Positions 8,871 to 29,127 of a stretch of DNA of 64,000 nt are shown here, one piece after another. A program made the position numbers and the translations under genes. The stretch lies in NCBI RefSeq assembly GCF_988243305.1, contig NZ_OZ547139.1; one strand, 5' to 3'. Numbering within the stretch: position 1 is the stretch's first letter; every line of letters begins with the position of its first letter. The notes beneath the pieces were generated by a model, which did not search any database, was not told the DNA's origin, and saw nothing but the letters and a program-made list of their open reading frames with translations. Source of the DNA: a plasmid.

Positions 8871-9260
8871 TTACAGGGTTGCGTCAACGCCAACAGTTGA
8901 ACCAACAGAAGAGATCCATGCGGTCAGGCCGACCAGGCAGGCACCAACAACCATTGACCAGAAGATGAAGCTGCCACTGATATCTTTCCCGCGTTTGTTT
9001 TTAAGGAAAAGAGAAACAAGCCCGACAATAAAGAACACAACACCAATGACTTTACCGCCGGTAATCAGACCAGGCTGGGTACTGGCAAGACCTTCCGTGA
9101 AGGTATTGATTTTCTCCCAGACAGTCGTTTCAGCCGCAGCCTCTTTGCTCAGTAATGCCAGCGGCAATACCACTAACGATTTTGCCACCGTTCCGCGCAG
9201 CTGATACGCTGCGATGGATGCAGATAATGCCTTGTCTTTGATAAGTTTAACAATTTTCAT
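8871..9260 (-). CDS. traR: TraR, IcmD/DotP-like small membrane protein
   Basis: 129 aa with 2-3 TM helices; assigned by synteny. Confidence 0.6.
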   Translation of the reverse strand: MKIVKLIKDKALSASIAAYQLRGTVAKSLVVLPLALLSKEAAAETTVWEKINTFTEGLASTQPGLITGGKVIGVVFFIVGLVSLFLKNKRGKDISGSFIFWSMVVGACLVGLTAWISSVGSTVGVDATL

Positions 9261-9276
9261 AAAGTATCCTTTTTGA

Positions 9277-9807
9277 TTACCAGTGAATGTTTAATGTGCT
9301 CTGCAACGCATCGAGCGTTTGTGTATCGAACATCAGAAGTAGTCCACATACAATTTTCACAATGGATGCCCCTCTCGTACCCGAAGCTGACAGCTCCGTA
9401 TGGCCCTCAAGGTAAGAGTCTTTCAACCCCTTTATACCCCTGTAAAAAAAGTATGCGCCGAGAATTCTAACAATCCCCAGCACTGCGTTGACTGCTGCGG
9501 CTCCCATGCCAAACGTAGATTCGCTCGCATAACTGACGGGTCCGAAGCTAACATCGCCAAATCCTAAAGTGGCACCGCCTGAGTTCATCTGTGCCTTCAA
9601 CGTGATGAGGCATACACAGAAGATGATACCGGCAAAAATTCTGCCAACTTCCACACCTTTTGTTGAATGCCTGGCCTGCTTCCGCAGGCTCATCAGATAT
9701 CCAATAACACCAATGATCCCAACGACTGCAGCGACACCTATGATTAGCCTTGTCAGCGGTTCCTGACCACCGTTAGCAACCTGAATTAATACCGATTCTA
9801 AATCCAT
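9277..9807 (-). CDS. traQ: TraQ, IcmC/DotE-like membrane protein
   Basis: 176 aa, polytopic; assigned by synteny. Confidence 0.6.
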   Translation of the reverse strand: MDLESVLIQVANGGQEPLTRLIIGVAAVVGIIGVIGYLMSLRKQARHSTKGVEVGRIFAGIIFCVCLITLKAQMNSGGATLGFGDVSFGPVSYASESTFGMGAAAVNAVLGIVRILGAYFFYRGIKGLKDSYLEGHTELSASGTRGASIVKIVCGLLLMFDTQTLDALQSTLNIHW

Positions 9808-9830
9808 AGTTTCGCCTTTTTGGGTCCTGT

Positions 9831-10541
9831 TTAGCGGATAAGGCCTTTACTTGTAGTAACGATTCTATTTTCAGTATCGATACCCGTAATGGTGACTCCG
9901 CCAAGTTGACTACCGACCTTCACAGCATACGTCTGGTTTTTGTATTTTACCCAAGCAAGATCGCCAGATAAATCATTAATTGAAAAACCTCTCAACAAAG
10001 GTAATGCCTGCGACGTTGCCCCAGAAATTGTTCCACTCTGATTACCAAATGAAGGCCCATAACCAGCGGATTTCATTTTCAGTTCCTGAACCTGATTGTT
10101 CAGATTTTTGATTTGTTCATTAGCGCTTTGTAACTGACTGGAAAGGATCATCATTCCATTTTTAGAAGTTGATTCTATCGCGTCCAGCCGTTCCTTTTGC
10201 TGCAGCAAAATCCCGGAAATTTGCTCGCGGAAGTCACCAGAATCCTGCCCGGCAGGGGCAGCCTGTACGTTCTGACGTTGCCCTGAAGACTGGATCGTGC
10301 CATTCCCGGCCGCAGGCGCAGTGTCACTATCGGAGCCCCCAAACAACCAGACTAAAAGCAGGATAGCTATGACAGCGATACCACCAATCCATGCATAGTC
10401 ACTAATCTTAAGCGGCTTTTTGTTTGCTTTTGCTGCTGGCGTCACTGTCGGTTTTGGCTTTTCAGCAGGCTTGGCAGACACCGGTTCCTGGGCAGGAGCT
10501 GCTTCGTTTTTATTGTCTTCTTCAAACAGATTCATTATCAA
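9831..10541 (-). CDS. traP: TraP, DotF/IcmG-like bitopic protein
   Basis: N-terminal Pro/Ala/Lys-rich tail, one TM helix, a coiled region and a C-terminal beta domain; assigned by synteny. Confidence 0.6.
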   Translation of the reverse strand: MIMNLFEEDNKNEAAPAQEPVSAKPAEKPKPTVTPAAKANKKPLKISDYAWIGGIAVIAILLLVWLFGGSDSDTAPAAGNGTIQSSGQRQNVQAAPAGQDSGDFREQISGILLQQKERLDAIESTSKNGMMILSSQLQSANEQIKNLNNQVQELKMKSAGYGPSFGNQSGTISGATSQALPLLRGFSINDLSGDLAWVKYKNQTYAVKVGSQLGGVTITGIDTENRIVTTSKGLIR

Positions 10542-10546
10542 TCTCC

Positions 10547-11896
10547 TTAACGGTAATACGGGTTACTGGAGCCATACCCGTAGCCGGGGTAGCTGGGAAA
10601 GTTTTGCTGAGGGTAATTTGGAGCCGGTGGTTGTGGCATCTGCTGAGGCGGCACACTGGTGAGTGTCGGAGTAGCTTGCTGCTGCGCCTGCTCTGCAGAA
10701 GCATTTTCCATATTCTCGCCACAGTCGCTTTCATACACCGGCGCGACAAACTGGATGCCTATGAGCTGATTACGGTCAACCGTAACCTGCTTCACCGGCA
10801 GACGGGCTGCATCGTCAGCCAGGACACGCCCTGCCTGTTCACCCATCCCGCCAATAATGGTACCGGCTACAGCCTTCCCGTTCGGTGTGCCAGTTGAGCG
10901 GTATGCGTTCCCGCCGTCAGTGATAATCATCTGCGAATTGCTGTCCGCATACAGCTGACCAGTTCGGCCTAATCCGTTAGCGACAGCCGGCAGAATAATA
11001 CGGCTGAACCAGCGGTTATTTACATTTGAGGAAACGGCCGCGCGCAACGAGTCGGAAGCCACGCCATACGCATCGACCTTACACTGCACTCCGTTCAGCT
11101 CCATGCCGGTGAAGTGAATTCGAATACCATCGCCGGCAAGACGGTTTTGGCCAGAATAGAATTTGGCGCCGGCCTGAGCTCCAGTTGGAACATGGGCAAT
11201 AGCAATACTGTTCTGATCGTCACTGTCCATCGCCGTATCCATTACTGCCGGCACAAGCGTGTAAGCCGATACAAGTCGGGCTCCTTTATCTTTGGCCTTA
11301 TTCTTCGCCCCCTGTTGTTTTTCAGCATCCGGCTTTTTGTTCTGCGGATAGACCGAATCGGTCCACCCTGAGAAGGTACCGCCGTTCTTGTCATTTCCTT
11401 CTGCTCCCAGAGGGGTTGCAAGAGCAACACCCGTGACAACTGGTGTTCTGGCCTGGTCTATTTTCTGCAGTAACGTAGCCACCGCTTTAGCCTGACGCTC
11501 ACGCTCTTTCTGCTCAGCATCATTCGCCTTACTGTTATCGCCCGACGGCTTTGCTGACGATTCCCACGAATATTTTGGTGGCGGTGCTTTGGTGCCGTAA
11601 TCAACGGCCACCGGATTACTGGCTGACAACGTGGAGATGAAGCTATCCCCTGTGAGAGCCGCTTTATCTGAATTATCAACATTCCACTCATTCAGCAGCT
11701 TGTTGTATTGGGGATCATTAGCTTTTTCCCTGCCAGTTTTCCCTTCCAGCCCCTGGGCTTTCACCTGCGACCCACCCGTTGCCGACTCATCTGATGAGCC
11801 AAACAACCAGTACCCTCCCAGAAGCGCCACCACTGCAGCAGCACCACCGACGTAGAGCATCATTTTTCTGGTTTCTTTACCTTTATCTGTAGCCAT
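10547..11896 (-). CDS. traO: TraO, DotG/IcmE (VirB10-like) core-complex protein
   Basis: 449 aa with an N-terminal TM helix and a C-terminal VirB10-like region ending in a Pro/Gln/Tyr-rich tail; assigned by synteny. Confidence 0.7.
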   Translation of the reverse strand: MATDKGKETRKMMLYVGGAAAVVALLGGYWLFGSSDESATGGSQVKAQGLEGKTGREKANDPQYNKLLNEWNVDNSDKAALTGDSFISTLSASNPVAVDYGTKAPPPKYSWESSAKPSGDNSKANDAEQKERERQAKAVATLLQKIDQARTPVVTGVALATPLGAEGNDKNGGTFSGWTDSVYPQNKKPDAEKQQGAKNKAKDKGARLVSAYTLVPAVMDTAMDSDDQNSIAIAHVPTGAQAGAKFYSGQNRLAGDGIRIHFTGMELNGVQCKVDAYGVASDSLRAAVSSNVNNRWFSRIILPAVANGLGRTGQLYADSNSQMIITDGGNAYRSTGTPNGKAVAGTIIGGMGEQAGRVLADDAARLPVKQVTVDRNQLIGIQFVAPVYESDCGENMENASAEQAQQQATPTLTSVPPQQMPQPPAPNYPQQNFPSYPGYGYGSSNPYYR

Positions 11897-11907
11897 CGTC
11901 GTTCCCC

Positions 11908-13059
11908 TTAATTCAGCTCAACTTCAACGTCACGCGCCTGACCATTAACAGAAAAAGTCAGCACTGGTGTTGCCGGCAGCACGTAAACATGTGTGCCATC
12001 GATAGCGGAAAGCGTTTTTTCAAACTCATCCTGCAGCTGCATGTTACTTCTGACGTAGAGCTCATCACCGATCTGCCAGACTTTGGTACTCCCTGGCGCG
12101 TTTTTAAGTTTCAACCGCTGAGCATCTTCAGGCGGGATGCCATCGAGCACGCTCTGCAGCTGCTTGTCATACAGTGAGATTTTTTTCTCAGGCGTAGCGG
12201 TATAAACCGGTGTGTCAGGACTGCGCTTCGGGATACGGAGATCCAGACGATAATCAACATCAACGGTTTTTGATTTAACGGAGGGTTCTGCCCCCTTCAC
12301 GTTAATAATGACCGGCGTGGCCAGCCCCTTCAGAAGCACTGTGATGTTCCCGCTGGCATAGGCATTGGTCGGCTGGATTGTGAATACCGCCGATCCTGGA
12401 ATATAGCCAACACACAGTTCACCACCTGAAGCACAGGGACTCGAATTATATGGAGGGGCACCTAATACCCAGGGGTGTCCGGTTGCATCTGAAAACGTCA
12501 CTGTCGTTGCCTGGTTTGGAAATACCCGTACCTGCGGAATGGATGCGCCAGCTGACAGTGATACCGTCTGGCTTGAAATTCGTGGGATCGGCGTTAATGG
12601 TGAGGTTTTGGCCGCCGCGCTCATATCTTCCATTGCGCTGCGGGCCGACCGCACCTGACCAGGGGTAATAGGCTGGATCTGCTGCAGAACAGGTGCAGGT
12701 AACTCTTCCAGTGTCTGCGGATTAACATGAGTAACCTGCTGCTGTGGTGGAGGAATCTGCGGCATGGGTGCAGGAGGCAGTGCAGTCGTTGGCCGCTGTT
12801 GGGCCTGTGCCTGTGGTTGTTGGCCTTGCGCCTGCTGCTGACCTTGTTCCTGTGCTGTTTGCTGTGGAGGCTGTTGCACCTGTGACTGCTGATTTACGGG
12901 CAACCCGGAACTGGCCTGCTGCCATTGAGCAATATCACCACCAGGCACAGCTGGCGCCGTTTGCTGCGGCGCTCCATTACCAGTCGGCGCATCAGCTGCA
13001 GATACAGAATTTGCCGAAAACAGTGCGGCCATAAGTACAGTTAACAGTTTAATCTTCAT
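11908..13059 (-). CDS. traN: TraN, DotH/IcmK-like outer-membrane core protein
   Basis: Signal peptide MKIKLLTVLMAALFSANSVSA, a Gln/Pro-rich linker, then a beta-rich C-terminus; assigned by synteny. Confidence 0.7.
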   Translation of the reverse strand: MKIKLLTVLMAALFSANSVSAADAPTGNGAPQQTAPAVPGGDIAQWQQASSGLPVNQQSQVQQPPQQTAQEQGQQQAQGQQPQAQAQQRPTTALPPAPMPQIPPPQQQVTHVNPQTLEELPAPVLQQIQPITPGQVRSARSAMEDMSAAAKTSPLTPIPRISSQTVSLSAGASIPQVRVFPNQATTVTFSDATGHPWVLGAPPYNSSPCASGGELCVGYIPGSAVFTIQPTNAYASGNITVLLKGLATPVIINVKGAEPSVKSKTVDVDYRLDLRIPKRSPDTPVYTATPEKKISLYDKQLQSVLDGIPPEDAQRLKLKNAPGSTKVWQIGDELYVRSNMQLQDEFEKTLSAIDGTHVYVLPATPVLTFSVNGQARDVEVELN

Positions 13060-13067
13060 GATTGACC

Positions 13068-13781
13068 TCAGTAGTTCCGGGGTTTGAGAATGGCCTGTGC
13101 TACTTGAATACCCCGTGGATCTTCGTCTTCTTTGACGCGGCGTACCTGAACCATCAAATCGTAAGGTTGCGGTCTGTAGTCCTGAGCCTGCCCAACAAGC
13201 TGAACAGTCACCGGAATGCGGTATTGCCAGGCATAGGTTTTGGTGCCACGGATAAGACCTTCCGTGATCAGGGTTCCAGGAGTTGTGGAAAGTTTTACGT
13301 TCAGACGTTTTTCACTGATATCTTTCAGCAGCCCACTATCGGACAGCGCTTTACGGAAACTAACGTACCCTTCAGCGCTAAAATCGCCGCGGACGCTGGT
13401 TAATTGGTTTTCGTAATTCACAAAGTTCAGTGAAAGCGATTTGATCATTGTACGGTTGGCAAAGTCCATCACCTCTTCCGCCGTGTAAGCGGGTTCATCG
13501 GTTGGATGAACTTCTGTGATCATGCCCCCATTCGTTGCAATATATTTGGTTTTTTTCTGGTGAAGCCAGTAACCCTGAAGACCAATGATAATGATTGCGA
13601 CTAATATGATTAGCGTTTGAATCAAAATTACTTTTAAACCATGTTTCGATACGATTTCTTGTACCGTTCGGTTACTCTCTTCAGCCAGAGCTGGAGCAAG
13701 GGCGTTGCTGTCATCATCAACGACTGAGTTTTGATCCGAGTCAGTTTGATCCATAATATTTTCACCATTTTGTGTTTTCAT
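13068..13781 (-). CDS. traM: TraM, DotI/IcmL-like bitopic protein
   Basis: Single TM helix (VILIQTLIILVAIIIIGL) plus a periplasmic domain. The start is uncertain (ATG 13781 or 13754) because the long ORF start overlaps the divergent hns-like gene. Confidence 0.6.
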   Translation of the reverse strand: MKTQNGENIMDQTDSDQNSVVDDDSNALAPALAEESNRTVQEIVSKHGLKVILIQTLIILVAIIIIGLQGYWLHQKKTKYIATNGGMITEVHPTDEPAYTAEEVMDFANRTMIKSLSLNFVNYENQLTSVRGDFSAEGYVSFRKALSDSGLLKDISEKRLNVKLSTTPGTLITEGLIRGTKTYAWQYRIPVTVQLVGQAQDYRPQPYDLMVQVRRVKEDEDPRGIQVAQAILKPRNY

Positions 13782-13848
13782 AGAGTTTCTCTTTTCAAAA
13801 GTTTGTGTTAGAAAATCACGCAGATCGTTAATGAACAATGAGGTATAC

Positions 13849-14259
13849 ATGAGCGAACATAATGATTACGAATCCTGTGCAGTTATCATGTGCGAACGAC
13901 GAAAAGCCACCGCCGTTTTGCGCAAAATCCCGCCAGAAAACCTTGAACAACTCATTAATATGTGGTCCGACATTGCACAGGGAATGATCGAGAAATTTAA
14001 GGAAGAACAGAAGGCCACTGAAGAGAAAGCCGCAGCCACAAAGCGGTTCATGGAAGAACACAATATTACGGCTGATGAAGCTCTCCAGATCTTCGAAAAT
14101 CTCTTTGGTCCGTCCACGAAAAGTAAATCCACTTTTGGAAAAGTGAAGTACCGGATCGAAGTTGATGGAAAGTCCATAACCTGGACAGGAAAAGGTCGCC
14201 GACCTGCAGCGTTTGCCGAGATGAGCGACGATGAGCTCAAAAAATATGAAATCAGCTGA
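13849..14259 (+). CDS. H-NS family nucleoid-associated protein (136 aa), opposite in orientation to the tra operon
   Basis: The C-terminus KYRIEVDGKSITWTGKGRRPAAFAEM matches the H-NS DNA-binding motif (TWTGQGRTP). N-terminal coiled coil. GAGGT Shine-Dalgarno before ATG 13849. Confidence 0.8.
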   Translation: MSEHNDYESCAVIMCERRKATAVLRKIPPENLEQLINMWSDIAQGMIEKFKEEQKATEEKAAATKRFMEEHNITADEALQIFENLFGPSTKSKSTFGKVKYRIEVDGKSITWTGKGRRPAAFAEMSDDELKKYEIS

Positions 14260-14443
14260 AGACTGGCTGCATACTGTCAGACGTTTCATGAATGAAGATT
14301 CGCTTGATACGTATGTAGACTCAAAACGTGATGTTCTACCTGCCACAGAATTTATGCGTTTACTAACCGCGGCGGAACACCGCCGCGTTGAAATACGAAC
14401 CGGCAAGCTATTCGATAAAATCCCGAAAGGACTCTTCCGGTAG
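14231..14443 (+). CDS. Small protein (65-70 aa) coupled to the hns-like gene; C-terminal AAEHRRVEIRTGKLFDKIP motif
   Basis: The ORF overlaps the hns-like stop. Its C-terminal motif is shared with the 76-aa product of 28897-29127. Function unknown. Confidence 0.5.
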   Translation: MSSKNMKSAEDWLHTVRRFMNEDSLDTYVDSKRDVLPATEFMRLLTAAEHRRVEIRTGKLFDKIPKGLFR

Positions 14444-14956
14444 TTACAAATGGAACGGGAATGCATCACTGTTTGCATCCTCACCACTTCCACTCGCAGC
14501 TGCCGGATTGTTTAATTGCACATTTTTAGAAGATGCGTTGGGCAGGATACCTGACGTATCTGGCAGTCGGGATGAAATCGTTGACCACGGGTCCAGCGTC
14601 GTATTAGTCAGGTTCCCCCACTTCTCATTAATCTTCGATTTAACCGTATTGCATACCTCATCCTTCACCTTATCAATAATGTCGCTGATAGACGGAAACT
14701 GTGGGATTTTAAGTGATACCGATAGCGACCCCAGGCACTGTCCGAGAGAATCAGACGTACTGGATTCGCTTTTTGCGGCGTTGTTAATCCTTTCCACTTC
14801 CTGCTTATAGGCAGCATCTGCACCAGCTTTTGCCAGTTCGTATGCTGCACAGGTCTGTGTTGCCGCAAATGAGCTCACAGAAATGCAGGAAAACCCTACT
14901 GCAACGAGTAGGGTTTTTGTTTTATGGCCGAGGCGCTGACTTTGCGACTGGTGCAT
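14444..14956 (-). CDS. traL: TraL-position exported protein
   Basis: Signal-like LLVAVGFSCISVSSFAA, downstream of the primase. Start uncertain (ATG 14956, 14977/14980 or 14998). Confidence 0.55.
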   Translation of the reverse strand: MHQSQSQRLGHKTKTLLVAVGFSCISVSSFAATQTCAAYELAKAGADAAYKQEVERINNAAKSESSTSDSLGQCLGSLSVSLKIPQFPSISDIIDKVKDEVCNTVKSKINEKWGNLTNTTLDPWSTISSRLPDTSGILPNASSKNVQLNNPAAASGSGEDANSDAFPFHL

Positions 14957-17900
14957 GAGTCTGTTCTCTCCTTTCATCATCTTTTCTTTTTGCAGCATTT
15001 GAAGGATGAAAAAGCTGCTTCATTACTGTTTTGTTTTTTACCTCATCTGAGGCCGCTTGTAAATGCTGAGGCTGTTTTTCATTTGCAATTGTGTTTTTGT
15101 AAAGCAAATTTTTACCCCCCTGATCTACATGTCCATAACCATGCAAAACAATTCCACTTTCGGCATTTTTATTGATTGCTGAAAGAGTCATATACGTTTT
15201 CCAGTTTCCGTCTTTATCAATACGCTTGTTCACTTTTCCAATCACGCTATGGTACTCACCGGACTCCTTATCCTTTGCGATCCCCTGCATGAATCCTTTA
15301 CGCGACTCAACAAGGAAATAATCTGGGCGTTCGCCTTTTTTATGCGGTGCGATCAGCAAAGGTGTACCCGCGGTTTTTGACTCTTGAGGGAGTTTATAGC
15401 CTGTGGGCTTTGTCATGCTTTCTGGAGCTGGCTTACCATTAGGCAGGAACCAGTACAGTTCTTTTTCAGGCACGGCCTCACGGCTGAGATCAACACCGGT
15501 AATCTGCTGAATTGTTGTGCGGAGCTTCTGGAAGGTTGCAGCATCATACGGAACCAGTTCAGAAGGCTTATAGGCCTGTTCATTCCCTGCTGTTGGCTGT
15601 GGGTATACAGGCTTTACTTCCCACTCATTACGTTTGGTCTGGATAGTTTCATAACGAACGATCTTGTTGCTTTCATCACGGACAGGTGCATTCACCTCAA
15701 CATCCACAAATCCCAGCTTTCTGACTGTAACAAGACGTTCTGTGTCTACACCAGCATCTTTAACCGCTCTCTCAAGGTCTTTCCCCCAGAGTGTCTTCTC
15801 TCCATGTTCATTTTTGAGGGTGACAAAGTAGTTCATGGATTCATCTTCTTTCCACTCATACTTAGCACGTCCATGCGCGACGATAACGCCTTTCTCCCAG
15901 GGTTCCCCTGCAGCTTTATCTTCCTTTTGAGTATCAGATGCATTCTGCTTCTTCGGCTGCACAGAGGCCGATTCTTCCCAGCGCATTCCATTCTGCTGAA
16001 CTGATGAATTTGTCTTTTCGTTTGCCCCTTCCTGCTTATTCGCATTTGAATCAGCAACATTTTCTTTTGCCGTTTCTTTTGCTGTTTCATTTGCTTTTTT
16101 GAGTTCGAGCAATTTAACCCTTTGTTCTGGGTTAGTCAGTTTCACCTCAATGTTGTATTCACTGATAAGGTTAAACACTCGCTCTTTAAATTCGTCACTG
16201 CCGGTGATTTCAATACCACGATGATGTTGCTTATCCGCGGTTAGAACGGCCGCCAGGATCATCTCGTCACTCTGGCTGGCTTCAGGGGTAGCCATACGCA
16301 GATGTGAGCCGTAATCGTAAAACGCATCCTGTCCATCAAGCGTATACGCCGTATAATCTTTCTCTGCTCTGTACCCAAACCGGGCAATTAACCCTTCCAG
16401 GTCTATACGTTCTTTTGGGGGCGTTTCTGCATTATCGTTGGTTGCCCAGCGTATGCCGTTTTCCAGTTCTTCGTTTGTTTTTTTCTTCTCCTCGGTTTCA
16501 TTTTCAGCCGGGGCGGTATTAGCTACAGATTCGCTGGGCGCTATCCTTTCAGGCTTTTGCTGAGCGGAGTCAGTTGTTTCACCGCCAAAGGCCATCATAG
16601 CGGCATACGCCTCAAGATCACTGGCGCTATTACTCTCTTCATCATCGCCGTCTCGATCTGTTGGTGCGGTGTATTCCGGTTCAGCAGCTGCAGGGGTGCT
16701 GGACACCGGCACAGCTTCCTCCGGTTCGGCAGCTGCAGGGGCGCTGGCCACCGGCGCGGTTTCCTCCGGTTCGGCAGCTGCAGGGGCGCTGGCCACCGGC
16801 GCGGTTTCCTCCGGTTCAGCAGCTGCAGGGGCGCTGGCCACCGGCGCGACTTCCACCGGTTCAGCAGCTGCAGGGGCGCTGGCCACCGGCGCGGTTTCCT
16901 CCGGTTCAGCAGCTGCAGGGGCGCTGGCCACCGGCGCGGCTTCCACCGCTTCAGCAGCTGCAGGGGCGCTGGCCACCGGCGCGGTTTCCTCCGGTTCGGC
17001 AGCTGCAGGGGCGCTGGCCACCGGCGCGACTTCCACCGGTTCATCAGCTGCAGGGGCGCTGGCCACCGGCGCGGCTTCCACCGCTTCAGCAGCTGCAGGG
17101 GCGCTGGCCACCGGCGCGGTTTCCTCCGGTTCGGCAGCTGCAGGGGCGCTGGCCACCGGCGCGGTTTCCTCCGGTTCGGCAGCTGCAGGGGCGCTGGCCA
17201 CCGGCGCGGCTTTTTCAGGATCTGCAACGGCAGCGCTGTCAGTCGAGCTGTGATTAACGTCAGTAATGTTCGGGTTATCAGTCGGCATAGTGTCTACCCT
17301 GTTCATTTGATTAATGGCTCCTTCTACCTGCAATCTGACTTGCTCCAGCCCTTCAGAGACATGCAAATCGTTGTAGTCAGTAAGCCCTTCTTTCGGGTTG
17401 CTAAAGGCAGGGACCAGAACATGGCCGGCAGTCAGCTCTGCAGCTTCTGTCGCTTTTTCTAGCCCAACGTTCTCGTCTTTATAAATGTCATTGTCAGCAA
17501 GGAAGTAATGAGTGCTGTTTGGAAAGGTGTCTTTCAGGCGGCCAGCAACTTCCACCATGTTGCCGGCATTAACCGTCATGATCACAGGCTGATTGATGGC
17601 TTCGCTGATACTGGCTGCTGTCGCATATCCCTCGGCATAAAGCAGGTTGTCACCATCCTTCAGTTGACCACCCACAACGAAAAAACTCCCCCATGCCTGG
17701 CCGTCTTTTTCAAGGTGTTTACTACCGTCGGACCAGATGCGCTCAAGGGTCCTGAACTCGCCATCAGCATTAAACAGAGGGATCACAACGTTGCCCCGCT
17801 CATCAGCTTTAAGGCCGTTAGCGGCAATGACCTGTTTGTTTTTCAGGTATGCCAGATCTCCCGTGGCATCCGGAAGCCGGTTATATTCTTCCATCAACCG

Positions 17901-18449
17901 GTTAGCGGTCTGATCAAACTTATCCGCTTGCGCTGCAGCTCTTTGTTCACGCCTTGCCGCAGCATCAGCACGGAGCATGGCCATTTGTTCAGGGTTAGGG
18001 GCTGCGCCGGTAGATACCCATTTCTGAATTTCACCACCGTTCTTATAGTCCCTGTACCACCCTGCAGGTCGGCCATCCAGAAAGGCGGCATACACCCCCT
18101 TTCTTGAACCAGCTTTACCGTCCACGGTATCGACATAATGCTTCTGGCCATCGAACTCTATGGGGTCTTTGATAATGGCACCGCGCTCTTCAAGCCACGC
18201 CGTAAATTCATCTTCAATGGCTTGAATATCCAGGGGCGGTTCTTCGATCACTTTATTGGGGTCAAAAATCCACTCTTTCAGCCGGCTCAGGTTGGCCCCC
18301 GGCTGTGCATACCACACCTTTTCTTCCTTCACGTAGTCCAGAGCATTACTGCCATCAGCCAGTTTGCCGGCCGCACGTATTGCACGTTGGCGATCGTCAA
18401 AGGGAATACTCAGACGGGTTCTTTCAGTTGCAATTTCAGGTTTCGCCAT
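14922..18449 (-). CDS. Sog/Pri-like conjugative DNA primase (1175 aa) with an internal 12 x 15-aa tandem-repeat linker
   Basis: N-terminal domain RTRLSIPFDDRQRAIRAAGKL...KVWYAQPG. TOPRIM-like region (YAEGYATAASI..., FLADNDIYKD). Lies at the sog position between traK and traL. Confidence 0.8.
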   Translation of the reverse strand: MAKPEIATERTRLSIPFDDRQRAIRAAGKLADGSNALDYVKEEKVWYAQPGANLSRLKEWIFDPNKVIEEPPLDIQAIEDEFTAWLEERGAIIKDPIEFDGQKHYVDTVDGKAGSRKGVYAAFLDGRPAGWYRDYKNGGEIQKWVSTGAAPNPEQMAMLRADAAARREQRAAAQADKFDQTANRLMEEYNRLPDATGDLAYLKNKQVIAANGLKADERGNVVIPLFNADGEFRTLERIWSDGSKHLEKDGQAWGSFFVVGGQLKDGDNLLYAEGYATAASISEAINQPVIMTVNAGNMVEVAGRLKDTFPNSTHYFLADNDIYKDENVGLEKATEAAELTAGHVLVPAFSNPKEGLTDYNDLHVSEGLEQVRLQVEGAINQMNRVDTMPTDNPNITDVNHSSTDSAAVADPEKAAPVASAPAAAEPEETAPVASAPAAAEPEETAPVASAPAAAEAVEAAPVASAPAADEPVEVAPVASAPAAAEPEETAPVASAPAAAEAVEAAPVASAPAAAEPEETAPVASAPAAAEPVEVAPVASAPAAAEPEETAPVASAPAAAEPEETAPVASAPAAAEPEEAVPVSSTPAAAEPEYTAPTDRDGDDEESNSASDLEAYAAMMAFGGETTDSAQQKPERIAPSESVANTAPAENETEEKKKTNEELENGIRWATNDNAETPPKERIDLEGLIARFGYRAEKDYTAYTLDGQDAFYDYGSHLRMATPEASQSDEMILAAVLTADKQHHRGIEITGSDEFKERVFNLISEYNIEVKLTNPEQRVKLLELKKANETAKETAKENVADSNANKQEGANEKTNSSVQQNGMRWEESASVQPKKQNASDTQKEDKAAGEPWEKGVIVAHGRAKYEWKEDESMNYFVTLKNEHGEKTLWGKDLERAVKDAGVDTERLVTVRKLGFVDVEVNAPVRDESNKIVRYETIQTKRNEWEVKPVYPQPTAGNEQAYKPSELVPYDAATFQKLRTTIQQITGVDLSREAVPEKELYWFLPNGKPAPESMTKPTGYKLPQESKTAGTPLLIAPHKKGERPDYFLVESRKGFMQGIAKDKESGEYHSVIGKVNKRIDKDGNWKTYMTLSAINKNAESGIVLHGYGHVDQGGKNLLYKNTIANEKQPQHLQAASDEVKNKTVMKQLFHPSNAAKRKDDERREQTHAPVAKSAPRP
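16676..17215. repeat. Tandem repeat, 12 x 45 bp (encodes EETAPVASAPAAAEP-type units inside the primase)
   Basis: Counted directly: the unit ccggttcggcagctgcaggggcgctggccaccggcgcggtttcct recurs head-to-tail with a few point variants. Confidence 0.95.
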
Positions 18450-18473
18450 ACTGTCTACCCCTGTAGTTATGTG

Positions 18474-18734
18474 TTATCGCTGAGAGCGCCGGTACCACCA
18501 CGGCCGCCCGGTAAGTTTTTTCCCGCGGATAACCCGGAGAATGACCTGGTACAGCACCGGTAACGTGTAGCCCATCATGGCCAGCAGAAAGTAAAAGAGA
18601 ACCACACAGGTGCAGATAACAAAGGTTTTTACTGACGGGAACGGAAACCAGATGAAGTACACAAGAAACGAGATAACAGGCACACCAAAAACCGTCAGTG
18701 GCCGGCCGGCATAACGCCATTTGTTAATGTCCAT
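18474..18734 (-). CDS. traK: TraK, IcmT-like small membrane protein (86 aa)
   Basis: Size, two TM helices, and position after traJ. Confidence 0.65.
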   Translation of the reverse strand: MDINKWRYAGRPLTVFGVPVISFLVYFIWFPFPSVKTFVICTCVVLFYFLLAMMGYTLPVLYQVILRVIRGKKLTGRPWWYRRSQR

Positions 18735-19887
18735 ACTTGCCCTCTTTTAACGCCAGATAGTCCATATATCCTGCGACCTCGATGACTTCCGCTTCGTCGA
18801 TCAAACCTTCCTGGTGCATTGCCCAGGCGTTCTGAATCAGACTGCGGTTTTCAGCGATCAACAGGTCGTCGATGTAGCGGCCCCACTTGCTGTAATCAAC
18901 GTCATAGAGTTTGCGGCGCAGGCTGTTATCAATGACGAGATATTCACGGACAGCCTTGCGCCGGCCGTCTTTTGTTTTAAGCAAGCGTTGCACGATGATG
19001 TAAGAAAGGATACTCAGCAGGTCAAAGGCGGCAGCTTCACGCATTTCCGGCGGATAGTTCTGCAATGATCGGGAAATGGCTTCTCCGACCGTTTTGACGT
19101 GCAGTGTGCCAAGACAAAAGTGGCCGGATTTACCTGCCAGTACAGCAGCTTCAAATGACAGGCGGTTAAGGAGCTCACCAACCCCCATAATCTTCGGAGA
19201 ACGACGGAGCCCGGAGAGAGTGATAAAATTGTGGAAGGAATCAATATCGCGCCCAATCTGTGACTGTGCCGGCGCCGGAGCAATCCAGTCTCGACTTCCC
19301 AGGCGATACTCGATGGGATCTTCAACCGTGATGATTTTCCGGTCCTGGTACGTTTCACCGCAATACTGGAAGATGCTGGCCATCAGGGTTGACTTGCCCG
19401 ATCCCGTCTCGCCGCATATCAGTCCGAGGCCGGCAGCCGGCAACAGAGAATTAAACAGGTCCGGCTCAATACCCATTTGTTTAAGCTGAGGAATAACCTC
19501 ATTCAGAACACGGAGTGTCAGAGACATTGCCGCTTCTGTTTTATAAATATCGGCCTGAGTAAAGTTCGCGCGGAACCGGCGGGTTTCGCCGCGGCCGAGT
19601 CCAATCGTGCCCGCTTCATCACCTCTTAGCTGGATAGCGGTATTAACGACCGCAGCACTTTTCAGCGTCCCTTTGATCTCCTGACCGAACACCTTATCAA
19701 CGGTACGTTCCAGCTCCAGGTTGTCGAGCGGGTAAGATGTCATGGGCAACTGGCGCCCATGACGTTCTACCCAGATTTTATCTCCGCCCTGCAACAGAAT
19801 ATCGGACACTTCATTGTTTGAGCAGTGTACGAGAAAACGTTCCAGCGTCTGGGGCGTCAGCGTTGGACCAAAATTGAATGCTTCCAT
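18724..19887 (-). CDS. traJ: TraJ, DotB-like (PilT/VirB11 family) secretion ATPase
   Basis: Walker A GETGSGKST, 387 aa; assigned by synteny. Confidence 0.85.
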   Translation of the reverse strand: MEAFNFGPTLTPQTLERFLVHCSNNEVSDILLQGGDKIWVERHGRQLPMTSYPLDNLELERTVDKVFGQEIKGTLKSAAVVNTAIQLRGDEAGTIGLGRGETRRFRANFTQADIYKTEAAMSLTLRVLNEVIPQLKQMGIEPDLFNSLLPAAGLGLICGETGSGKSTLMASIFQYCGETYQDRKIITVEDPIEYRLGSRDWIAPAPAQSQIGRDIDSFHNFITLSGLRRSPKIMGVGELLNRLSFEAAVLAGKSGHFCLGTLHVKTVGEAISRSLQNYPPEMREAAAFDLLSILSYIIVQRLLKTKDGRRKAVREYLVIDNSLRRKLYDVDYSKWGRYIDDLLIAENRSLIQNAWAMHQEGLIDEAEVIEVAGYMDYLALKEGKYGH

Positions 19888-19897
19888 CTACTGCCCC

Positions 19898-20677
19898 TTA
19901 ACGTATGGTCGGTTTCCAGCTGCGTTTGTTGATGTCAAACTCAGCTTGCTGCTTCATACGTTTCGTTTTATCGCCCAGCATGAGGCGGTTTTTATCCCCT
20001 GTAACTGTTTGCTGCTGCTGTGTGATGACTGGAGCCTTAATCATGCCCTGCTGCAGTAGCGTGCTGTAGCGCAACATGCCGGTGTAATCCCGTGTGAGGC
20101 GATTGAAATTAGCAGTGAATATCTCATCAGCTTTTTGGCGACCGTCAGACCAGCCCAGCGCGACAGCTTTTTTCCAGATATCACGTTGTTTCCCGTCCTT
20201 CGGCATTGCAGCCGGTTCAGGCAATTCGATCCGCTGCGCCATCAGCCCGGTCAGAAGATAGCTTTTCCAGGTCGGTGGGTTACTGACAAAGCGCGCCGGC
20301 ACCACAATGTCATAGGCACGGTTGGCCGTTCGGATTTGCTCATTGGTAATGTGTGCAACGTCTTTAGCTTCAGCAATGACCGGTGGCAGGTAGCCTTCAG
20401 AAGAGACCAGCGGCTGGAACGAATACATGTAATCAAGGTTGCTGCGCTGATTTTCCAGCGCGGCGCGAATTTCTTTAGCGCGTTCTGCCTTTCCGCCGCG
20501 AAATCCAATGGTGTGCGCTGCGTCGTTTAGCATACTGCCAGTAACATCGGCCTCATCGTCACTTTGGCTTGGCGGGTCCATGTAGTAATCCAGGCCTTTA
20601 ACATCGGAGTCGTCCGCGCGTGCAACGTTCGCAGCAAGCAGCGGTAACGTCAGAAGCACGATCAGTTTAAGTTTCAT
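19898..20677 (-). CDS. traI: TraI, DotC-like exported/lipoprotein
   Basis: Signal peptide, 259 aa, lies between traH and traJ. Confidence 0.65.
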   Translation of the reverse strand: MKLKLIVLLTLPLLAANVARADDSDVKGLDYYMDPPSQSDDEADVTGSMLNDAAHTIGFRGGKAERAKEIRAALENQRSNLDYMYSFQPLVSSEGYLPPVIAEAKDVAHITNEQIRTANRAYDIVVPARFVSNPPTWKSYLLTGLMAQRIELPEPAAMPKDGKQRDIWKKAVALGWSDGRQKADEIFTANFNRLTRDYTGMLRYSTLLQQGMIKAPVITQQQQTVTGDKNRLMLGDKTKRMKQQAEFDINKRSWKPTIR

Positions 20678-28896: not shown

Positions 28897-29127
28897 TTAT
28901 TTTACATACTGCCAGACATGCGGCGGGATCTTATCCCAGATGCGTCCCGATGCCAGCTCTGCGCGGCGATGGTCGGCGGCAGCCTCAAAAGCCTCGGTGT
29001 CCTCCGGCGGCACCTGTCCACGATCCCGCATGGATTCGTACATTTTTTCCAGTGTGTCCGGGTTACGACTGCGCCGAAAACGGAGAAGGTAAAAACGCCT
29101 CCGTGCCTGATAAACTGTTTCCGCCAT
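28897..29127 (-). CDS. Small protein (76 aa) with C-terminal AADHRRAELASGRIWDKIP motif
   Basis: ORF whose motif is shared with the 14231-14443 product. Confidence 0.55.
   Translation of the reverse strand: MAETVYQARRRFYLLRFRRSRNPDTLEKMYESMRDRGQVPPEDTEAFEAAADHRRAELASGRIWDKIPPHVWQYVK

Follow-up and report, generated by a model that had tools for sequence, protein, structure and literature searches.

The closest described relatives of the gene pair considered here are found on resistance plasmids of the IncL/M group, where the pair has already been described and annotated. On pOXA-48 the two genes are named orf36.2, for an H-NS protein, and orf36.1, for a Hha protein of 65 amino acids (aa). For pCTX-M3, a review from 2021 places an H-NS-like and a Hha-like open reading frame (ORF) within orf36 on the opposite strand. 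The pair was reported from the IncM plasmid R446 as early as the 1990s; Nieto and Juarez (1999) related Orf4 of this plasmid to H-NS, and the title of Tietze and Tschape (1994) links the regulators to temperature-dependent pilus expression. The present analysis concerns the corresponding locus in a stretch of plasmid DNA of 64,000 nucleotides (nt), contig NZ_OZ547139.1 of assembly GCF_988243305.1, referred to below as the window. Orf36.2 and Orf36.1 of pOXA-48, the ORFs opposite orf36 of pCTX-M3 and Orf4 of R446 are the same genes as those of the window, in the same position and orientation. The pOXA-48 and pCTX-M3 proteins are 100% conserved according to the pOXA-48 supplement, the proteins WP_004187465.1 and WP_004187464.1 are identical in pNDM-HK and pCTX-M3, and nothing of substance differs from the window.

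Two further plasmid systems provide looser parallels. The IncHI1 plasmid R27 likewise carries an H-NS and a Hha which act on its own transfer genes and are reported to thermoregulate conjugation (Forns et al. 2005). The backbone and transfer system of R27 differ from those of the window. The R27 hns and hha genes are not known to form an overlapping operon embedded antisense in a tra operon. Sfh of pSf-R27 is likewise a plasmid-borne H-NS paralogue, the loss of which is reported to raise the cost of plasmid carriage (Doyle et al. 2007); it has no coupled Hha partner and lies outside any tra operon, whereas the H-NS of the window has such a partner and is encoded within one.

We consider it highly probable that the pair in the window constitutes a two-gene operon, encoding a plasmid-specific H-NS paralogue and a Hha-family partner, which lies antisense between traL and traM of an IncL/M type IVB transfer region. 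The ORF listing and the raw sequence place both genes on the + strand, with the 136-aa hns-like gene at 13849-14259 followed by the 65-aa hha-like gene at 14246-14443. They overlap by 14 nt across the hns stop codon (14257-14259) and, because of this overlap, translation of hha is likely to be coupled to that of hns. On the - strand, traM lies to the left of the pair and traL and the primase gene to the right. An earlier sequence-only reading had described a 136-aa H-NS protein with an overlapping ORF of 65-70 aa on the opposite strand between traM and traL, convergent with traL and the primase gene and divergent from traM. All of this is borne out by the sequence and the ORF listing, and 13782, the start coordinate given in that reading, marks where the 67-nt spacer between traM and hns begins. 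The two lengths given for the small ORF, which stops at 14443, correspond to an ATG at 14246 (65 aa) and another at 14231 (70 aa).

The larger protein carries the RefSeq label "H-NS family" and its partner that of "Hha/YmoA family nucleoid-associated regulatory protein". Residues 100-122 of the former read KYRIEVDGKSITWTGKGRRPAAF, and the Pfam family PF00816 (Histone_HNS) matches residues 99-124 with 29.4 bits against a cut-off of 25.6. Within this region the motif TWTGKGRRP (residues 111-119), which is invariant across the four lineages of the pair described below, aligns to the DNA-binding domains of H-NS (1hnr, 2l93) and StpA (2lrx). The H-NS family call made from the letters alone was right. 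Hhalign aligned query residues 65-132 to residues 62-125 of Escherichia coli H-NS with 96% probability, and some 50 canonical H-NS proteins with two domains were matched near full length by a family profile (E = 1e-10 to 1e-3). A search of 1.84 billion representative proteins returned no more than two clusters at E < 1e-30, one of them its own. The protein is a distant member of the H-NS family.

An AlphaFold2 model of the protein, with a mean predicted local distance difference test (pLDDT) score of 78, contains helices at residues 3-25, 29-70 and 75-86 (pLDDT about 80-88), followed by a disordered basic linker, a beta-hairpin and two short helices, an arrangement which, as modelled, is that of H-NS. 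The linker, residues 87-99 (PSTKSKSTFGK), is non-helical and its pLDDT falls below 50 at residues 89-96. A Foldseek search of the Protein Data Bank with the full-length model yielded no significant match and only a weak one to the C-terminal domain of Bv3F. In a multiple alignment the invariant R18 shares a column with R12 of H-NS.

For the small protein, the family assignment is direct. Pfam PF05321 (HHA) scores 34.9 bits against a cut-off of 25 and covers 53 of 57 profile positions, and gapless alignments over 60 residues were obtained with Hha (1jw2, 4icg), YmoA (2k5s) and YdgT (2jqt), with E = 7e-6 for the Hha chains. The Prokaryotic Genome Annotation Pipeline (PGAP) assigns the label Hha/YmoA to this protein on hundreds of plasmids. 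These comparisons identify the partner as a member of the Hha/YmoA family. The sequence-only reading had regarded its function as unknown and had proposed, from its position, that it acts in a Hha/YdgT-like manner; the first statement is superseded by the family membership, and the second was right and understated, since the partner is itself of this family. E44 of the small protein (AAEHRR) stands at the position of D48 of Hha (AADHR), a conservative change, and it is invariant in all lineages. R12 of H-NS and D48 of Hha are the key contact pair in the Hha/H-NS complex.

A second Hha-family gene is present in the leading region of the window (28897-29127, - strand). Its product of 76 aa, ...AAADHRRAELASGRIWDKIPPHVWQYVK, shares 38% identity with E. 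coli Hha, and the residue corresponding to D48 is the canonical D. The gene is listed as RmoA in the pOXA-48 paper and bears the PGAP label Hha/YmoA in pCTX-M3; the plasmid thus encodes two Hha paralogues but one H-NS.

The chromosomal H-NS/Hha system of Salmonella and E. coli (4ICG; 1JW2) shares with the pair the motif TWTGxGRxP, the helical N-terminal half of H-NS and a gapless four-helix Hha, as well as an arginine equivalent to R12 (R18) and, where Hha has D48, an acidic residue. The window's H-NS-like protein differs in its low identity to E. coli H-NS (about 24%), in its weakly recognisable N-terminal domain and in carrying KGR in place of QGR, while its Hha-like protein has E where the chromosomal Hha has D. 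Moreover, the chromosomal hns and hha genes are unlinked, whereas those of the window form one overlapping operon.

The pair region was found in 947 plasmid records of the IncL/M group, where PGAP annotates the two genes, and the 2.2 kb surrounding it are 100% identical to pNDM-HK and to many plasmids typed as IncL/M. Searches of genome, metagenome, plasmid and protein collections revealed only four lineages of the gene pair, namely the IncL/M lineage of the window and three others: a Pantoea/Erwinia aeris type, with an H-NS 85% identical to that of the window, an Erwinia persicina/Salmonella type in three variants (52-53%) and a Serratia type (51%). The contigs that carry the three further lineages are plasmid-sized (50-68 kb) and have the same neighbouring genes, and the gene order, the overlap arrangement and the abutting hha and traL stop codons are the same in the Pantoea, Erwinia persicina and Serratia types, with an hns/hha overlap of 11 nt in the Erwinia persicina type compared with 14 nt in the window. 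The next-nearest H-NS (P0015) lies in an unrelated context lacking both Hha and tra genes. Across the whole IncL/M-like backbone, the pair is an ancestral feature. It had been read as inserted into the tra operon, which holds relative to IncI1 plasmids, where the pair is absent (PMC6112013), but not for the IncL/M-like backbone itself.

Alignment of the four lineages led to revision of three start codons. That of hns was placed at 13849 and that of hha at 14246, because the upstream ATGs, at 13831 and 14231 respectively, vary among the lineages, and that of traM at 13781, which yields 237 aa in all relatives whereas a 260-aa form starting at 13850 is interrupted by an indel there. Between lineages, the ratio of non-synonymous to synonymous substitution rates (dN/dS) is 0.04-0.2 for hns and 0.04-0.15 for hha; in one example, substitutions at the first, second and third codon positions number 12/8/56 for hns and 2/1/21 for hha. 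The Hha-like protein is 75-95% identical across lineages, and synonymous sites of the pair are saturated like those of the neighbouring tra genes, with a proportion of synonymous differences (pS) of 0.64-0.77. By these measures both genes are under strong purifying selection. Since both products exceed their Pfam gathering scores and substitutions favour the third codon positions of the + strand frames, the two genes are not chance ORFs.

Extra constraint on the pair was considered as an explanation for the 901-bp hns-hha segment being at least 99% identical in 923 of the 947 records, compared with 658 of 947 for the 2.2-kb segment, and was rejected in favour of a mosaic relationship with pCTX-M3. 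Over positions 9000-20500 of the window, pCTX-M3 is near-identical at about 11.0-14.5 kb and diverges in patches, one in traO (10.5-11.0 kb) and one in traL and the 3' end of pri (14.5-15.5 kb), and the repeat region of the primase gene also differs. This mosaic divergence suggests recombination between IncL/M variants. The primase repeat region, at 16675-17212, consists of twelve tandem 45-nt units (93% matches; GC content up to 0.73) encoding the repeat APVASAPAAAEPEET, and its copy number varies between plasmids, with the primase measuring 1175 aa in the window and 1070 aa in pCTX-M3.

In the original annotation of pCTX-M3 the locus was represented by orf36, a frame of 221 codons that is found in the ORF listing of the window at 13828-14493 on the - strand and has the published size (PMC6112013). 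It runs with the tra genes and covers all of hns and hha. Two regulators were reported for pCTX-M3, orf35, a 121-aa gene of the leading region, and orf36, the 221-aa ORF on the tra strand (PMC6112013). The sequence-only reading had mentioned, with some uncertainty, two small ORFs at this position in pCTX-M3 as reported negative regulators of transfer, which is only partly accurate, since orf35 lies elsewhere and orf36 is located here but was annotated on the other strand. One could hold that orf36 is the real gene and that the H-NS and Hha frames are incidental. The frame does exist, it is free of stop codons in three lineages, it was first held responsible for the regulatory phenotype, and mobilisation fell in the presence of a cloned orf36 fragment (PMC6112013). 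However, that fragment carries hns and hha as well, overproduction of Orf36 failed, and the deletion of hha is complemented by Hha in trans. Furthermore, it is the + strand products that pass curated family thresholds and the + strand frames that the substitutions follow. Over hns, the ratio of non-synonymous to synonymous differences (pN/pS) of the antisense frame is 0.8-1.7, its product is only 30-55% identical between lineages, and three stop codons break the frame in the Serratia-type lineage; on these grounds orf36 is not a conventional gene, and hns and hha are the conserved protein-coding genes of the locus. That the 221-aa orf36 is the real gene is thus highly improbable and close to refuted.

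The openness of the antisense frame is nevertheless an anomaly, moderately supported and the only oddity of the locus. The frame is stop-free across both genes in the IncL/M lineage, in the Pantoea type and in all three variants of the Erwinia persicina type. Synonymous resampling with tra-gene codon usage gave a probability of 0.004-0.01 per lineage for an open frame, with about four stops expected. Within hns the antisense frame is codon-aligned, so that only the sense codons TTA, CTA and TCA produce stops in it, and none of these occurs among the 14-18 leucine and serine codons of hns in five sequence variants from three lineages. In hha, which belongs to the same operon and is read in a different phase, they make up as many as 6 of 10. 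In Fisher tests of hns against hha, the window gave p = 0.0012, two Erwinia-type variants gave 0.04 and 0.013, and the Pantoea type gave 0.42. Among the other backbone genes, 7% of 136-codon windows lack the three codons. A codon bias associated with high expression was considered as the cause and is not supported, because rare codons are no less frequent in hns than in the backbone (7.4 per 100), A-ending codons in its other four-fold boxes are normal at 17-33%, and the three critical codons occur freely in hha. Another long antisense ORF, in a different frame, overlies hns at 13866-14240 (- strand), with 124 aa from its first start and 136 stop-free codons; it is present in IncL/M plasmids and closed in the other lineages, which shows that some long antisense ORFs arise here by chance.

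These observations raise the idea that both strands are used, with the tra-strand frame across hns and hha kept free of stops by selection, its protein sequence being unconstrained, because ribosomes have to translate through it; the act of translation rather than its product would then matter, and the gain would be a traL-to-traM messenger shielded from Rho termination or from pairing with the abundant antisense hns-hha mRNA. In addition to the resampling result and the avoidance of TTA, CTA and TCA in hns but not in hha, the saturated synonymous sites make the lineages close to independent. Yet the observation was made post hoc and covers few lineages. Stop codons break the frame in the Serratia type, the Pantoea type shows no signal in the within-operon test, and the candidate starts lack a good ribosome-binding site. 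Experimental data also speak against the idea, since hns transposon insertions interrupt the antisense ORF without reducing pOXA-48 transfer (PMC12365149), and S26, an in-frame scar deletion, improves the donor instead of impairing it. We regard such selection on the frame as rather unlikely. If it did operate, ribosomes on the traL-to-traM messenger would need to read across the antisense of a strongly expressed regulator operon and, given the transcript overlap predicted below, the locus would act as a sense/antisense switch in which transcription of the transfer genes and of the silencer are opposed.

Returning to the reading of the locus as an H-NS/Hha operon, several candidate signals of expression can be named. 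The hns-hha cassette fills the entire interval between traL and traM except for the 67-nt spacer beside traM (13782-13848), which separates the divergent traM and hns start codons and, across the four lineages, is far better conserved than flanking synonymous sites, with AGTTTCTCTTTT invariant. The spacer should hold the hns promoter and 5' untranslated region and, on the other strand, the ribosome-binding region of traM. A candidate extended -10 element for hns-hha, TGtTAGAAA, lies at 13806-13814 (+ strand), and TGnTAGAAA, found in six of six aligned sequences, is a plausible element of this kind. A consensus promoter scan detected nothing in the spacer; it missed TGtTAGAAA because it demands a T at position 6 of the hexamer. 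A Shine-Dalgarno sequence GAGG is situated at 13840-13843 (+ strand), 5 nt before the hns ATG, with G-GG invariant in the alignment. Minima of local GC content occur at 13500-13799, at the 5' end of traM adjoining the spacer (0.387), and near the start of traH (0.43), and weakly fit H-NS targets.

Downstream, a hairpin with a T-run at 14889-14918 (+ strand) is the predicted intrinsic terminator of hns-hha. It lies about 450 nt past the hha stop codon, in the 5' part of traL that encodes the signal peptide and just past the primase stop codon, and it has a 12-bp stem, a folding energy of -17.4 kcal/mol and a z score of -3.3. Each of the other three lineages has an equivalent hairpin at this place, with stem letters changed (A-T to G-C) and pairing kept; Rfam returned a sub-threshold match to a leader/terminator family over it (32.8 versus 55 bits). 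The hns-hha transcript thus probably ends at this candidate terminator within traL and, if so, it would run from about 13820-13825 to about 14920-14925, its length would be about 1.1 kb and its last 480 nt or so would be antisense to most of traL. On the - strand the same hairpin lies inside traL, 3 nt downstream of the primase stop codon, and in the loci of the Pantoea, Erwinia persicina and Serratia types it received a terminator-like score; besides ending the hns-hha transcript it might attenuate tra transcription between pri and traL.

As to the neighbouring genes, traM, at 13068-13781 (- strand), encodes a VirB8-like protein of the DotI/IcmL family (Pfam T4BSS_DotI_IcmL, E = 1e-34). The traL gene occupies 14444-14998 (- strand), and its stop codon touches that of hha with zero gap in all lineages (TAG|TTA or TAA|CTA). 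The primase gene (14922-18449, - strand) overlaps the traL start by 77 nt.

The best-supported interpretation is that a translationally coupled H-NS/Hha pair tunes the expression of secretion-system genes and stabilises the plasmid. Transcription would start from the candidate extended -10 promoter in the spacer and probably end at the traL hairpin, the 3' part of the transcript being antisense to most of the traL mRNA, and coupled translation of hha would provide matched amounts of the two proteins. The H-NS-like protein would oligomerise by its helical N-terminal half and bind AT-rich plasmid DNA by the TWTGKGRRP loop. The Hha-like protein would dock on the N-terminal domain, with E44 pairing with R18 as D48 of Hha does with R12 of H-NS, and tune the silencing filament. 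Targets would include the secretion-system genes from traH onward and, together with the separate orf35 repressor, the pair would keep the transfer genes and their cost low.

Published mutants can be reread in this light. The primers used to construct orf36::cat in pCTX-M3 map to 13833-13868 and 14443-14478 of the window, and the deletion spans 13869-14442; hns codons 8-136 and the complete hha gene were thus lost. In this mutant, traH mRNA rose about 120-fold, nikA and nikB were unchanged and mobilisation increased 5-10-fold (PMC6112013), while donors that also lacked orf35 were 50-100-fold better. Several points weigh against our interpretation. Self-transfer of pCTX-M3 was unchanged in orf36::cat (PMC6112013), and this allele also destroys the antisense ORF and introduces a promoter-bearing cat gene, so that it is not a clean deletion and the traH effect cannot be assigned to both proteins with certainty. 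On pOXA-48, deletion of hha alone lowered conjugation about 3-fold, with Hha in trans restoring it, and in transposon sequencing (Tn-seq) hha insertions were depleted from transconjugants like those in essential tra genes (log2 fold change -4.73), whereas hns insertions were neutral (-0.47) (PMC12365149). The signs of these effects, together with the unchanged self-transfer in orf36::cat, do not fit a simple co-repressor. As to sequence and structure, residues 1-64 of the H-NS-like protein remained unaligned to E. coli H-NS in hhalign, its N-terminal domain scored 19.5 bits with Pfam PF22470, under the cut-off of 24.5, and the hns-hha promoter and terminator are predictions only. Given that the double deletion raises traH mRNA and mobilisation but leaves self-transfer unchanged, and that loss of hha alone lowers conjugation, the description of the pair as negative regulators of transfer is an oversimplification.

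As to the contribution of Hha itself, the single-mutant data point to a positive effect on transfer. The Hha-like protein may limit or redirect the plasmid H-NS, which alone would over-repress, rather than strengthen silencing. This would accommodate the reduced conjugation seen on loss of hha alone, both in the complemented deletion and by Tn-seq, and also the neutrality of hns insertions, which are probably polar on hha, and of the loss of both genes for self-transfer. Canonical Hha, on the other hand, strengthens H-NS silencing, in Hha/H-NS complexes such as 4ICG, and the Tn-seq effect far exceeds that of the clean deletion, so that part of it may be an artefact of insertion beside the traL stop codon. 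We consider such a limiting role possible but doubtful. The mismatch between the Tn-seq value and the 3-fold effect of the clean deletion is not explained by simple polarity on traM.

The data on plasmid maintenance raise a further alternative, in which the main role of the pair is one of stealth, like that of Sfh, with extra H-NS capacity counteracting the titration of host H-NS and transfer regulation being secondary. On pOXA-48 the H-NS-like gene ranks with the most highly transcribed genes, and its silencing by CRISPR interference or its deletion leads to plasmid loss, mainly in E. coli, with costs in fitness and stability that depend on the host species. Insertions in hns were also under-represented in the input transposon library, with a mean of 23.6 reads compared with 225 for hha (PMC12365149). 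Set against this are the fixed position of the pair inside the tra operon in every lineage and the strong effect of its deletion on traH, as well as the 1994 R446 paper which, by its title, ties the regulators to pilus expression. As the main role, stealth is a tentative proposal that we think unlikely; the stealth and transfer-regulation roles do not exclude each other.

The locus is a known and ordinary one, and the practical value of re-examining it is limited. New here are the revised start codons, the conserved -10 candidate and predicted terminator, the analysis of selection in four lineages and the antisense-frame statistics, such that the gene boundaries and the likely, predicted transcript ends are better defined. 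The phenotypes published under the name orf36 belong to the deletion of hns and hha, and donor strains lacking the pair already serve as high-efficiency conjugation tools. IncL/M plasmids, including pOXA-48, pCTX-M3 and pNDM-HK, play a major part in carrying genes for carbapenemases and extended-spectrum beta-lactamases, and this regulator pair affects both the level at which their transfer machinery is expressed and the persistence of the plasmid in E. coli.

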